Source: a virus
Lineage: Duplodnaviria > Caudoviricetes
Length of the DNA: 31,514 nucleotides
Strand: one strand, 5' to 3'
Virus record (IMG/VR): IMGVR_UViG_3300040971_000031
Coordinates: 1 to 31,514 of that record
In this document: positions 11,361 through 16,486 of the stretch, piece after piece
Position numbering within the stretch: the stretch's first letter is position 1
Layout of the letters: each line of letters begins with the position of its first letter
Notes under the pieces: generated by a model
Database searches by the model: none
Seen by the model: the letters and a program-made list of their open reading frames with translations, nothing else
Told to the model about the DNA's origin: nothing
Made by a program: the position numbers and the translations under genes

Positions 11361-12326
11361 ATGACTAGACCCACCAGCGCAACCACTGTGAGCCGCCCCG
11401 ATCTGGCGGCCGTGGTCTATGAGTACGCACTGGAAGAGAGCCAGTCCCGGTTTATCGGGACGCAGGTGCTTCCCATCTTTGAAACCGCCGAGCAGTCCGG
11501 CGAGTACCCGAGCATCCCCATTGAGGCCATGCTCAAAATGCCCGACACCAAGCGCGCCCCGCGCGGCAAGTACAACCGTGGCGACTGGAACTTCGAAATG
11601 AAGAACTTCAGTTGCAAGGAGAACGGGTGGGAAGAGCCGCTGGATGACAGCGAACTCAAGCTCTACCGCCGTTTTTTTGATGCCGAGGCCGTGGCCACCC
11701 GCCGCGCCGTTGACATCATCCTGCGTGCCCAGGAGTTGCGCATCAAGAACATGCTGTTCAACACCGGCAATTTCTCCGCGCACGGCGTCACCAACGAGTG
11801 GGACGACTACTCCAACGCCACCCCCCTGACCGACATTGCAACCGGCGCCAAGGCCCTGCGCAATGCCACTGGCCTCAATCCGAACTGCCTGGTTATTGGC
11901 CGGTCCGTGTTCGACAACCTCTGTCTGTGTGCGCAGATCGCCAGCAAGGCCCAGTATACCACGCCCATCGAACTGATGCCCTTCGAGCAGAAGAAGCTCG
12001 TGATCGCCACGGCGCTCGGTATCGAAAAGCTCTTGGTCGGCGACGCCGTCTATGACGGGGCCAAAAAGGGACAGGCTTTTTCCGCCACCGACATCTGGGG
12101 CACCGAGTACGGCCTGCTCTGCCGGGTCGCCACCAGCATGGAAGAACTCCGTGAGCCCTGCTTGGGCCGCACGTTCCTTTGGAGCGAGGACAGCGACACC
12201 CCGCTGACCGTCGAGCAGTACCGCGACGAAACGACCCGCAGCGAAGTGTACCGGGCTCGCCAGTACACCGCCGAGCAGTTCGTCTTCACCGGAGCGGGCT
12301 ACCTGCTCAGCAATCTGACCACCTAA
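11361..12326 (+). CDS. major capsid protein (HK97 fold, gpE-like)
   Basis: FIGTQVLP, RAPRG, WDDYSNATPLTDI, PNCLVIG, GAGYLLSN; strong RBS GAGGAG. Confidence 0.9.
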   Translation: MTRPTSATTVSRPDLAAVVYEYALEESQSRFIGTQVLPIFETAEQSGEYPSIPIEAMLKMPDTKRAPRGKYNRGDWNFEMKNFSCKENGWEEPLDDSELKLYRRFFDAEAVATRRAVDIILRAQELRIKNMLFNTGNFSAHGVTNEWDDYSNATPLTDIATGAKALRNATGLNPNCLVIGRSVFDNLCLCAQIASKAQYTTPIELMPFEQKKLVIATALGIEKLLVGDAVYDGAKKGQAFSATDIWGTEYGLLCRVATSMEELREPCLGRTFLWSEDSDTPLTVEQYRDETTRSEVYRARQYTAEQFVFTGAGYLLSNLTT

Positions 12327-12346
12327 CCCGCAACCCCCTTGCGATA

Positions 12347-12381
12347 GACCCCGGCCAGTTTCCTCCTGGCTGGCCGGGGTC
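12347..12381 (+). terminator. 12-bp GC-rich hairpin after the capsid gene (no U-tract)
   Basis: GACCCCGGCCAG / CTGGCCGGGGTC perfect stem. Confidence 0.55.
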
Positions 12382-12397
12382 ACCTTAAAGGAGCATC

Positions 12398-12619
12398 ATG
12401 GCAGATTTCGCGGATCGGGCATCCCATGCAAGCGAGGGCCTCCTCGCAGACGCACTCGCAAAGAGAGCGAGGGAAAGGATGTCAGCTCCAGCCGAATCGG
12501 CACATGAGTGTGAAGAGTGCGGGGACGAGATCCCCGAGGCGAGACGCAAAGCAGTGCCGGGGTGCACGCGGTGCATAGAGTGTCAGATAATCTACGATAG
12601 GAGCCATCCATGGGCATAG
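12398..12619 (+). CDS. TraR/DksA family C4 zinc-finger protein
   Basis: N-terminal DFADRA (DxxDxA) and CEECGDEIPEARRKAVPGCTRCIECQ. Confidence 0.92.
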   Translation: MADFADRASHASEGLLADALAKRARERMSAPAESAHECEECGDEIPEARRKAVPGCTRCIECQIIYDRSHPWA

Positions 12620-12912
12620 TAGCAACCAAGGCCATCAGCGCCGAAAATCAATGGTCGGACGTGTTTGAGCTCCAGGGTGACTCCGGACATATCCCGAGCC
12701 GCCGCGCTCTCGTCAACGCAACCCGCGACGACAGTACCGTAACCCTGCGTCGCTACGCAGCCGCGACCGACGCCGTCGACGCCTACCTGTCGAGCCTCGA
12801 CCTGGACAGCACGATGAGCGCCGTCGAGATCCCTGTCGGCGGGCTCTACCGCGTCGGTGTCGCCACCGGCAACTACGGCGGCACGGCCCTGACGATCACC
12901 GTGGAGCAATAG
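12610..12912 (+). CDS. hypothetical beta-rich virion protein, possible capsid spike base
   Basis: 100 aa; ENQWSD...VTLRR...LYRVGVATGNYGG..LTITVEQ; the function is inferred. Confidence 0.6.
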   Translation: MGIVATKAISAENQWSDVFELQGDSGHIPSRRALVNATRDDSTVTLRRYAAATDAVDAYLSSLDLDSTMSAVEIPVGGLYRVGVATGNYGGTALTITVEQ

Positions 12913-12913
12913 C

Positions 12914-13372
12914 ATGGCATCGGCTGCACATTCGGTTGCGCGGGCTTGTGCGCGAGCTGCTGGCCGGGCGGTCAATGCAGGTTTTGGCGCTGGCTGGCCC
13001 TCCGGCCTCCTCAAGCTCTACCGCTCCACCGACGGGCTGAAAGCCGCTCTCGGCTCTATCGCGTGGAGCGTCACACCGACGATCGCCGCTGACGGCGTAG
13101 CTGCTGGCAATGGGCCAGACATGGGCAGCGTCAACAGGGCGAGTCGGAAGGTGTGTGTGGTGCGGTTTAAGGCGACGAAAGCCTCTGATGGCGTCACCGG
13201 TGACGAGCAGGTCTTTGGGCCGCTCTACCTGCGCAATGGCAACCTGGTCGGCAAGCTGGACGGCGCAGAAGGTGTGATGGCCCACACTTGGGCAATCGGT
13301 GACGAGATAGCGGCAGTGGTTGAGATGACGCCGAGCGGGGTGAGTGTGCAGTTAGTGGGAGGGTTGGAGTAA
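12914..13372 (+). CDS. hypothetical virion protein, possible capsid spike fibre with partial LamG-like domain
   Basis: N-terminal 4-residue repeats AHSV-ARAC-ARAA-GRAV followed by a beta-rich domain. Confidence 0.6.
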   Translation: MASAAHSVARACARAAGRAVNAGFGAGWPSGLLKLYRSTDGLKAALGSIAWSVTPTIAADGVAAGNGPDMGSVNRASRKVCVVRFKATKASDGVTGDEQVFGPLYLRNGNLVGKLDGAEGVMAHTWAIGDEIAAVVEMTPSGVSVQLVGGLE

Positions 13373-15528
13373 TGGCCGAGATAACTACTGCTGCGGCTGG
13401 CAACTGGTCGGCAACGGGCACTTGGACGGGCGGTGTTGTTCCCGGCGTTGGCGACGCGGCCACAATTAACCATGCCGTGACTGTAGACGTTGACACAACC
13501 GTGGGCACTGACGGGGTTGCGGGGACGGCGGCGATAACCGTAAAAACTGGCAAGGCGCTCGTTATAAATGCAAATCTCCGATGTAGGGGCGACCTATTAC
13601 AAGAGCGCGGCAGCACTGTTACGCTCAACGGACCAAACACGCTGTATTTAGACTCGGCCAGTGCAGGAGTTAGCTACCGTTGGACGTGTAACGGTACTGG
13701 GGCAGGCGTTCCCAGGTTTGAAATTAAGGCAGTCGGAGGCCAGCGCGGAACGGTGGAAGGTGAAGGCGGGCGCGGTGGAGATTTTGGGAGGATCGCCCCG
13801 GTTGGCGGCGTTGGTTATTGGTCGGCAATCGATTGGGACGGTGCAATTCTGCGCAATCTTGGCAGCGCATCAGTGACGGGTGTAAATTTTTACATGCATG
13901 ACGCAACATCTTCCGTCAGCATAAAAAAGACACTCGTTGCGGGATGTGGGCAAGTTTATCTCCAAATTAACGACGGTGCCCCTAATTTCATCATAGACGC
14001 AATAGATTTTAGAAGCTGCCTCGCTCCGCTGGCCCTGTATGTGATGGGGAACCAGGACAAGACAACTGGCGTTCGCAAATTAAGCAATGTCACGGTGTAT
14101 AGTGATGGTTCGCGTAGGGACATACAAAATGCGATGCGCGACTTAGAGTATGAAAATATTATTCTGCATAACGGCGGGTTTGTAAATTCTGCAAGCACGT
14201 TGAGGAACAGATTTGCAAAACTTTTTGTTTCTAAAACATACCAACCCACGTGTCTGCAAGTTTTTGGGAAAACCGGCAATATAATTGAAGACGCTATTTT
14301 TACCTCTGACGTTGTTAATTCGCATACAATCACAGACAATAATAGCGATAATGGGCAAGCTGACAACATAGTGCGGCGATGCGTAGCTGACGCATGGAAT
14401 AACGCATCTGGCGATTGGGGAGAGTTTATCGCAAATGCCTACAGTCGCTTTGATGTATATGAAAATATCATCATAAACAGGGGTATTAATCTCTATTCAA
14501 TCGCCTCAACAACGGGTACATGCAGATTTTTTAAGAATACATGCTATAACTGCAACGGGATGAACATAGGCGAGACTGTTGCAAACGCCAATGCCCTGGA
14601 GAAATATTCCTCCAACTTGATGGTCAAGATGCCAAATGGCATGGCGCAGTTGTCTGCTTTTACGTCCCTTGCAAACGCCTCATACATAGATCACAACGCT
14701 TTTTGGGACATGGAGACAGATACAAACCTCGCTCACCCCACGATTGCTGGCAGCCCTCGATCATACATGGGGGCAGAGTCGATGGATGGATGGTTTATTG
14801 ACGATCTTGGCTTTAATGGTACTGCTGGACGTGGCGCTAGTGATGTTTACGCGAACCCCAACTTTGTAGACCCGACCCGCACTGTCAAGACTTGGGCGCA
14901 GCAATATGATAGCGGGATAGTTACAATTCAAGACGTTGGTCGGCTAATGGTCCAGTTTAACGGCTACGACTACAGCGGAATAGCAGTGACGCCAGTCGAA
15001 GGGGCTACGGTTACAAATTGCCTGGAGTGGTTACGTGCGGGTTTCGCGCCCACAAACTCGGCGCTGGTGGGGGCTGGCGAGGGCGGCGTGACTATCGGCG
15101 CGGTCGAGTACGTTTCCGCAGACGAAACTGCCCCCGTCCTCACCTCCCCGTCAGCAACGGCCACAGGCCCAACAACCGCCACGGCAAGCGTAAGCACCGA
15201 TGACGGCAACGGCACGCTCTATTTCCTCGCGTCCACCAACGCCACGGAGTCCGCAGCGACGGTAAAGGCCGCTCTCTCGCAAAGTGTCACGGCAGTCGGT
15301 GAACAGAGTATCGGCCTGTCCGCGCTGGACCCTGTGACGACCTACTATGTGCATTTTGTGCAGATCAATGGGGCAAGCCTTGAATCTGAAGTGGTGAGTT
15401 TTGGACCTTGGAGTACGCCAGACATCTCCATCCCATTGGCATTCTCTGACACCGCCCCGGCTACGCTACTGACTGTACAGGTGTGGAGCAAGGTGCCGAA
15501 GAAAGCCGATGTTGAGGGGCTGTACTGA
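13372..15528 (+). CDS. 718-aa protein: G8-like N-terminus, parallel beta-helix core, FN3/Ig-like C-terminus (putative depolymerase or adhesin)
   Basis: GNWSATGTWTGGVVP..GD start; Asn-rich beta-helix repeats (ENIIIN, KNTCYNC, IDHNAFW, ANPNFVD, IGAVEY); DETAPVLTSP module; low-GC core. Confidence 0.75.
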   Translation: MAEITTAAAGNWSATGTWTGGVVPGVGDAATINHAVTVDVDTTVGTDGVAGTAAITVKTGKALVINANLRCRGDLLQERGSTVTLNGPNTLYLDSASAGVSYRWTCNGTGAGVPRFEIKAVGGQRGTVEGEGGRGGDFGRIAPVGGVGYWSAIDWDGAILRNLGSASVTGVNFYMHDATSSVSIKKTLVAGCGQVYLQINDGAPNFIIDAIDFRSCLAPLALYVMGNQDKTTGVRKLSNVTVYSDGSRRDIQNAMRDLEYENIILHNGGFVNSASTLRNRFAKLFVSKTYQPTCLQVFGKTGNIIEDAIFTSDVVNSHTITDNNSDNGQADNIVRRCVADAWNNASGDWGEFIANAYSRFDVYENIIINRGINLYSIASTTGTCRFFKNTCYNCNGMNIGETVANANALEKYSSNLMVKMPNGMAQLSAFTSLANASYIDHNAFWDMETDTNLAHPTIAGSPRSYMGAESMDGWFIDDLGFNGTAGRGASDVYANPNFVDPTRTVKTWAQQYDSGIVTIQDVGRLMVQFNGYDYSGIAVTPVEGATVTNCLEWLRAGFAPTNSALVGAGEGGVTIGAVEYVSADETAPVLTSPSATATGPTTATASVSTDDGNGTLYFLASTNATESAATVKAALSQSVTAVGEQSIGLSALDPVTTYYVHFVQINGASLESEVVSFGPWSTPDISIPLAFSDTAPATLLTVQVWSKVPKKADVEGLY

Positions 15529-15686
15529 TGGGCTTCTGGCAACCGTGGCTCAAGCCGCATCAGACGTACCTGATTTGGCTACTCCTTGAGGGGCGAGAAG
15601 TGCCAGATAGGTACGAGAAGACTAGGGAAGAGTTGCGCGAGTGGTTTGAGGCAGAAGTAAAAGCGAACGCAGGCAAGTCGGAGTGA
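15528..15686 (+). CDS. small hypothetical protein (52 aa)
   Basis: MGFWQPWLKPHQTYLIWLLLEGREVPDRYEK...; TGATG coupling; not in the ORF track. Confidence 0.55.
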   Translation: MGFWQPWLKPHQTYLIWLLLEGREVPDRYEKTREELREWFEAEVKANAGKSE

Positions 15687-15689
15687 CGC

Positions 15690-16016
15690 ATGAATTTAAG
15701 CGGCCTTGAACAAACGCTAATCGGCGTCCTGACCGGCGGTGGTGGCGCTTGCATCGGATACGTCATCGGGATGCGCGGAAAGATGACAATGGCAGACTGC
15801 CAGCGTTACCAGGGCGCATGCACTGAGCGCGTGCAAGCAAAGATAGACGCCGTGGCCGCTAAATATGCCGAGCTGTGCGCGAGACAGGACCGCGTTGACG
15901 CAAACATAGATGCAAAACTCGACATCCTTTTTCGAATGGTCCGGGCCATAGTCATGCACTTGCCGATTGATGAGCGCACAAAGTCAGAGATCATCAACGA
16001 GAGGGCCGGGAAATGA
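15690..16016 (+). CDS. membrane-anchored coiled-coil protein, possibly lysis-associated
   Basis: N-terminal Gly-rich hydrophobic segment then heptad-like region; directly before the endolysin-like gene. Confidence 0.6.
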   Translation: MNLSGLEQTLIGVLTGGGGACIGYVIGMRGKMTMADCQRYQGACTERVQAKIDAVAAKYAELCARQDRVDANIDAKLDILFRMVRAIVMHLPIDERTKSEIINERAGK

Positions 16017-16486
16017 AGCACACTCTCACCACCATCATCGACCCCGCACTGCGCCTACTCCCGCCCATGATGACCTCTGACCGCGCCAAGGCCATGCTCT
16101 TGGCTATCGGGATGCAGGAGTCGAGGCTCGTACATCGCAAACAGATCAACGGTCCCGCAATGGGACTCTGGCAGTTTGAGCGCGGAGGTGGCGTGGCTGG
16201 TGTGCTTCGGCATCCGGCGACGCAGGGTCACGCGGCGGCGGTATGCTGGCGGCTCGGCAACGCAGGGACCACGGCCAGCGTCTATCATGGTTTGCAGAGC
16301 GACGATGTGCTCGCCGCATGTTTCGCCCGATTGCTGCTTTGGACGCTCCCGGTTCCGCTGCCCGAGAGGGACGATGTAGTCGGTGCCTGGGACCAGTACA
16401 TCGCAGCGTGGCGACCTGGAAAACCGCACCGGCACACGTGGGATGAATTTTACAAGCAGGCTTGGGAGGTGGTGAGTGGGATTTGA
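16013..16486 (+). CDS. putative endolysin (lysozyme-like fold)
   Basis: AMLLAIGMQES (candidate catalytic Glu), GPAMGLWQFE, WRPGKP; adjacent to the holin. Confidence 0.7.
   Translation: MKHTLTTIIDPALRLLPPMMTSDRAKAMLLAIGMQESRLVHRKQINGPAMGLWQFERGGGVAGVLRHPATQGHAAAVCWRLGNAGTTASVYHGLQSDDVLAACFARLLLWTLPVPLPERDDVVGAWDQYIAAWRPGKPHRHTWDEFYKQAWEVVSGI

Follow-up and report, generated by a model that had tools for sequence, protein, structure and literature searches.

What is known of how phages attach and swap glycan-cutting and glycan-binding proteins comes mostly from tail spikes that carry a fused anchor at the N-terminus. In the donor-strand complementation of chaperone-usher pili, a peptide of one chain completes the incomplete beta-sandwich of another, and split-domain tags include SpyTag/SpyCatcher and split GFP. 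The RcGTA head spike consists of a pentameric jelly-roll base, Rcc01079, and a head fibre, Rcc01080, the base holding N-terminal residues of the capsule-binding fibre (PMC7296036, PMC10218006), and an N-terminal (I/L)-G repeat of the fibre binds five base subunits (PMC7296036). The capsid turrets of HFTV1 are made of a base hexamer and a head trimer with a deacetylase-like domain (PMC12494034).

The phage locus analyzed here resembles the RcGTA spike in having a gene for a predicted small beta-sandwich protein followed by a lectin-type body with a short variable N-terminal arm, in being accessory and in fitting first attachment to the capsule; the RcGTA fibre, however, is one 325-aa chain, whereas in this locus the lectin-type domain is divided between two chains, the second of which carries the cargo. 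With the HFTV1 turrets it would share a glycan-active enzyme domain on the capsid held via a separate base protein, whereas the turrets present fixed cargo on a trimeric stalk, without a split domain or a shared docking tail. As with pilus donor strands and split tags, we propose that a peptide of one chain completes the incomplete beta-sandwich of another; those systems, however, use Ig-like or barrel folds and are polymer-forming or engineered, whereas the fold here would be a natural ConA/LamG one, with a C-terminal donor common to unrelated enzymes and no covalent bond suggested. A full-text search of the phage literature, covering few subscription papers, found no split LamG domain and no docking by strand complementation. 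The module is real and conserved and, apparently, undescribed; we read it as a form of base-and-fibre virion decoration whose coupling mechanism is likely new. From sequence comparison, structure models and analogy, we lean, with rather more confidence than doubt, toward a strand-complementation plug and socket that hangs swappable, glycan-active cargo on the virion, probably at a head spike.

RESULTS AND DISCUSSION

Gene order and junctions of the locus

The window (the whole stretch of DNA that was analyzed, a 31.5-kb record) stems from a lambda-like long-tailed phage, judging by gene content in family searches, and its virion genes comprise terminase, portal, S49 protease, cement protein, major head protein, tail tube, tape measure and J-like tip protein. 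The head gene is followed on its 3' side by a TraR-type zinc finger, a 100-aa gene, ORF-A, ORF-B, ORF-C and lysis genes, in this order, with the following features:

12398-12619, TraR/DksA-type zinc-finger gene of the late operon, 3' of the capsid gene and 5' of the module
12566..15664, + strand, accessory module, exchangeable, flanked by the TraR-type zinc-finger gene and the lysis genes
12610..12912, + strand, 100-aa small beta-sandwich protein, putative spike base
12914..13372, + strand, ORF-A, 152 aa
12914..12994, + strand, N-terminal arm of ORF-A, residues 1-27, variable; putative anchor in the base protein
12995..13372, + strand, core of ORF-A, the proposed "socket", N-terminal three quarters of a ConA/LamG-type sandwich, ending at the conserved split point
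13372..15528, + strand, ORF-B, 718 aa
13372..15120, + strand, cargo (effector) region of ORF-B, residues 1-583
15121..15423, + strand, spacer module of ORF-B
15424..15528, + strand, 34-aa tail of ORF-B, the proposed "plug", comprising the final strands and the end helix of the ConA/LamG domain (residues at 15424-15525)
15528..15686, + strand, ORF-C, 52 aa, coupled to the tail

None of Pfam, PHROGs and NCBIfam gave a match to ORF-A; ORF-B matched nothing in Pfam or NCBIfam, and in PHROGs had two weak matches only, both of unknown function. ORF-C had no family match; a homologous frame lies directly 3' of the tail in two other loci, L002 and L003, and is shortened in a third, L001. A WQ.WL motif in ORF-C has a similar counterpart in locus L016 behind a different fibre. 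A GC-rich inverted repeat lies at approximately 12349-12380, 5' of the TraR/DksA-type gene, and GC content drops to 42% at 14001-14500, inside the cargo region.

The original prediction had read this locus as a split LamG-like domain with a cargo gene inserted at the split, and had listed short direct matches at the two borders; the core of this interpretation is strongly supported, while the repeats as scars of the insertion are not supported. The ORFs at 12914-13372 (152 aa) and 13372-15528 (718 aa) are present, with the peptide ends that had been quoted for them, and are coupled as claimed, by a TAATG overlap with GGAGG 9 nt 5' of the second ATG. A second assembly of the possible source sample (Logan contig, run X1) covers 12508-16083 with 0 differences, so that the ORF-A stop is not an assembly error, the comparison being one within the same sample rather than with an independent one. 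The border copies of GGTGAGT, at 13339 and 15393, do share a codon phase, and those of TTGGAGTA, at 13364 and 15408, differ in phase. These matches amount to no more than chance, since (i) GGTGAGT has 6 copies in the window, (ii) neither downstream repeat copy is present at the junctions of L001, L002 and L003, and (iii) no contig in the four runs examined joins 13339 to 15393 (runs X5 and X7, with patchy cover, were left out as evidence). The upstream TTGGAGTA is the ribosome-binding site plus stop, and the downstream copies of both repeats fall outside the conserved tail. A target-site-duplicating insertion element was likewise rejected, there being no conserved border repeats in L001-L003 and no joint between the repeats in the four runs.

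Homologues and the conserved split point

A search with ORF-A returned 38 homologues of 146-239 aa among 263 candidates, nearly all stopping at the same residue, and a profile search of 1.8 billion representatives gave 43 matches. When both searches were pooled, 70 of the 78 distinct proteins (a count that takes in a few partial matches) ended no more than 12 residues past the end of the model, and the other 8 extended past the A part. Longer forms were absent from the 3112 candidates of a word-index search, whereas the full profile search did find some. There was no match to ORF-A in 50,697 GenBank phage records or in 400 other genomes sampled from the phylum of G001, no usable match in the Atlas search, no diverged form in a pattern search and scan, and nothing significant in PDB sequence searches with ORF-A, ORF-B and the cargo profile; locus L009, in an unrelated hydrolase, was a chance match. 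The phage of L001 was also found in a genome labelled Syntrophus sp. One sub-group of A proteins (P0026, P0029, P0030, P0032 and P0034) has a different last strand and end, and may pair with a different plug.

The original prediction had pointed to relatives in which the two parts are one ORF or flank different cargo, and both kinds were found. The natural forms make up a series, in which the domain is uninterrupted (P0068), holds cargo within one chain (P0067, P0082 and P0089), or is spread over two genes (the window, L001 and L003) or three (L002), and the same two pieces surround different cargo in unrelated phages (L001-L003, and 19 tail proteins). A tail profile built from split-form tails only matched P0068 with 19.7 bits at residues 168-189, directly after the A part, and matched P0082, P0089 and P0067 after 480-550 inserted residues with 15.3, 14.6 and 14.4 bits, respectively, the best score among 4300 shuffled sequences being 8.7 bits. 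P0063 (5.6 bits) and P0097 (2.6 bits) have a tail-like stretch where the alignment leads one to expect it, with scores within the shuffle range. Between its two pieces, P0068 has approximately 14 residues that the split form lacks. P0065 and P0072, in which A and cargo form one chain, have no tail within the chain, and the same holds for the second of the two A copies in P0089 and for the copy at the C-terminus of P0090; this counts against universality of the arrangement.

The insert of P0082 contains a DD-peptidase-like domain. P0089 (2262 aa) has two A domains, each followed by a different cargo, with a tail that closes the first only, and its first insert resembles that of P0067. In L007 (1388-1777), the ORF after an A gene with a variant end starts with no more than the last, C-terminal third of an ordinary LamG domain (54% to residues 68-163 of P0047; Pfam LamG3 positions 93-151), which is near the part missing from A; the contig stops before any tail position.

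Structure models

The uninterrupted homologue P0068 was modelled with a mean pLDDT of 81, residues 161-180 reaching 92-94 and residues 181-190 reaching 81, so that the tail-equivalent stretch (168-189) is modelled at approximately 81-94, inside the ConA/LamG alignment. Against 48,161 chains, residues 31-188 aligned to ConA/LamG domains with Z 14.4 and rmsd 2.3 over 150 aligned residues, the best match being domain 4 of AbnA (5ho0 and 5hon, Z 14.4); the cyanopodophage Pan3 tailspike (9vyh) gave Z 12.3, and Foldseek returned 20 matches at E<=1e-3. The domain aligns over its whole length with the ConA/LamG type (Laminin_G_3, PF13385), from which it differs in its length of about 160 aa versus about 190 and in being split in most members; the PF13385 profile itself had no match at E<=1 in ORF-A or ORF-B and none at E<=0.5 in P0068 or P0063.

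ORF-A modelled alone, a comparison between two different proteins rather than one protein with and without its tail, reached pLDDT 70, with residues 1-48 mostly below 50, and had no Foldseek match at E<=1e-3; its best alignment, to LamG and pentraxin domains, gave Z 5.6 over 72 aligned residues. A complete fold of ORF-A by itself, which would have spoken against the original prediction, was therefore not obtained, the model being only partial. The last strand of LamG domains lies within a sheet, next to the first strand, which would explain the disordered start of ORF-A in a model without the tail.

Profiles and models together show the homology of ORF-A and tail with one uninterrupted ConA/LamG domain. 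By this homology and these models, ORF-A is an acceptor without the strands that the tail would supply as donor, as in a strand-complementation pair. On the same grounds we consider re-assembly of ORF-A and tail in trans highly probable, and the split ConA/LamG domain probably serves as a coupling and not as a sugar binder.

Upstream gene and place on the particle

We propose the following mechanism: (i) cargo would first have entered a loop of the domain, the whole remaining a single chain, as in forms like P0067, P0082 and P0089; (ii) a stop and a restart would then have separated the chains; (iii) through TAATG coupling, ORF-A and ORF-B would be made together, and the tail would complete the sandwich in trans; (iv) the N-terminal arm of ORF-A would bind the small beta-sandwich protein encoded upstream, in the way that the RcGTA fibre attaches to its pentameric base; and (v) the cargo would bind or trim host capsule or other surface glycans at first attachment. 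A gene of any kind would, on gaining the tail, encode displayed cargo, and swapping would use the conserved ORF-A, spacer and tail DNA as homology. For trans re-assembly, display through arm and base, and a location on the head rather than the tail, all three taken together, the balance tips modestly in favor.

All six A-bearing loci that were read (the window, L001-L004 and L007) have a gene for 96-127 aa 5' of A. The Atlas model of the 100-aa product in the window (pTM 0.75) has TM 0.57-0.71 to beta-sandwich proteins, including 0.70-0.71 to unnamed, mostly viral clusters of 94-100 aa; a XepA cluster (0.87) is only a lead. The gene had no named family in Pfam, PHROGs or NCBIfam and no named spike base among its structure matches. 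The module has no sequence match to Rcc01079 or Rcc01080, and the (I/L)-G repeat of RcGTA is absent from the arms of the ORF-A family, which show other hydrophobic patterns of several types. The upstream gene comes in three types, one in the window, L004 and L016, one in L002, L003 and L007, and one in L001, and the arm of A, variable across 39 homologues, tracks these types in seven loci. In P0073, the L001-type upstream gene is fused to an A domain (41% identity over 126 aa). These observations suggest the 100-aa protein as a putative spike base that would anchor the module on the particle.

The RcGTA-like order of base then fibre and the occurrence of the module in both long- and short-tailed phages make the head the best-founded location, and by this analogy the module probably sits there. 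The same strand-complementation tether could instead hold the complex on the neck, tail or baseplate, as might be read from the position of the L001 and L002 modules behind tail-fibre or fibre-assembly genes and from an upstream gene without a named spike-base match. On the other hand, the module of the window follows the capsid gene with only the TraR-type gene between, a small beta-sandwich gene followed by an arm-bearing fibre is the order of the RcGTA head spike, and the module occurs both with the long non-contractile tail of the window's phage and with the tail-tubular, short-tail genes of G004, which has another head-protein family; a site away from the head is in our judgment unlikely, while deserving serious attention. 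PF17212, tried as a marker of short tails, had no match anywhere, controls included, and was discarded.

In L016 (4947-6590), a homologue (61%) of the 100-aa gene is followed by a gene for a 434-aa fibre with a similar arm and another body, which looks like an unsplit alternative at the same slot, with the LamG-type end intact.

Gene coupling and the site of action

Rather than meeting as separate chains, ORF-A and ORF-B could be joined by a programmed frameshift at TAATG, the domain then closing in cis as in P0067 and P0082. The identical -1 overlap in the window and L001-L004 and the existence of one-chain forms agree with this; yet a ribosome-binding site lies at a good distance in the junction while a standard slippery heptamer is absent, L007 has another spacing, L002 carries the tail on a third gene, and among diverged A proteins the end sequences vary widely although the structural point at which they stop is the same, all of which leaves the frameshift improbable.

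We hold it to be just as improbable that the complex forms and acts as a soluble or cell-associated moron product on host glycans at lysis or in the lysogen. The module does lie just 5' of lysis genes in the window, L001 and L003, it is accessory, and several cargoes are enzymes; against this, its genes are coupled within the late operon, scans found no promoter or terminator of its own above chance level, and for a soluble enzyme there would be no need of a base gene or of a conserved socket that bears a variable arm.

Mobility and selection

In a near-identical relative (run X6, one contig), 730 other bases replace the 3099 of 12566-15664, between flanks that are 98-99% alike, with 6 differing letters over 12000-12565 and 9 over 15665-16080. 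The unit that comes and goes is therefore 12566-15664, larger than the stretch between the short repeats. The L001-L003 loci (7-12 kb) resemble the window in DNA only in ORF-A, spacer and tail (78-87%). L004 combines the window's upstream genes and arm type with an L001-type cargo start, and cargo has therefore been swapped independently of the other parts. As a whole, the module passes between phages that are not related, and a phage can lose it in one piece.

Purifying selection acts on ORF-A and tail alike, as estimated from coding-sequence comparison: dN/dS was 0.09-0.26 for the tail (6 pairs from 4 loci) and 0.14-0.25 for the ORF-A core (10 pairs from 5 loci), the pairs not being independent in either set, and the variable columns at first, second and third codon positions numbered 6/4/19 in the tail and 34/20/79 in A. 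That ORF-A and tail are left over from an ancient insertion and persist as recombination arms through which cargo is exchanged, their proteins staying apart, would agree with DNA likeness confined to these pieces and with a module dispensable in the run X6 relative, but is similarly improbable given that the changes are mostly silent and that the tail stands in frame at the C-terminus in 19 of 19 proteins (a count biased by the tail search that found them).

Tail, spacer and cargo variety

The gene that follows and overlaps the ORF-A homologue of L001, L002 and L003 encodes a different cargo, and in L001 and L003 it ends with the same tail. A search with the last 40 residues of ORF-B, limited to proteins of 394-1257 aa, found the tail in 19 proteins of 22 candidates, the query included; these tails are identical at 28-34 of the 34 positions, a range that the search itself biases upward. 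A and tail were seen on the same DNA in only 4 distinct phages. A DNA pattern for the tail had four matches in viral contigs, three of them known loci and the fourth, L014, a chance match on the opposite strand of a large gene.

The cargo parts of the 19 proteins fall into 8 groups with no BLAST link between them: the window's own group (6 proteins), a LamG3-led group (7), a SASA esterase (1), two separate BNR_4 proteins matching alpha-rhamnosidase NF052497 (best E 1e-36), a DUF2341 protein (1), a metallophosphoesterase (1), and one protein without a family match, which we take from a motif to resemble a zinc carboxypeptidase. The window's cargo is a putative beta-helix; searches of Pfam, NCBIfam and PDB sequences gave no match for it, and its group showed only weak matches, to G8 in P0053 (E 0.029) and DUF5123 in P0050 (E 0.02). 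Between cargo and tail, the cargo proteins have 0-2 spacer modules, presumably Ig/FN3-like from their pattern, and the spacer is 84-87% alike at the DNA level in the window, L001 and L002.

The module may be described in broader terms as natural split-domain tagging, in which a 34-residue C-terminal plug would make capsid-displayed cargo of any protein by completing a LamG socket, the socket in turn would fit interchangeable capsid bases through its arm, and base, socket, spacer and cargo would assort independently across long- and short-tailed phages; we give this generalization an even chance. It would extend to L002, where a small adaptor with a plug may link one more cargo to the chain, and to L007, where a different LamG domain, cut down to its C-terminal third, may provide the missing strands. 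The family would represent another route of attachment, with intermediates still present, by which cargo entered a loop of a lectin fold and fission then gave socket and plug; it would account for a set of unannotated virion enzymes, and the 34-aa motif would allow such enzymes to be recognized. If the pair binds tightly, it would make a new natural tag-and-catcher pair for protein display.

The three-gene form of L002 (6387-9364) encodes an 826-aa cargo with another C-terminal domain and carries the tail on a separate 166-aa gene, possibly an adaptor, which consists of a short N-terminal peptide, spacer and tail; this cargo is close to that of L003, which bears the tail itself.
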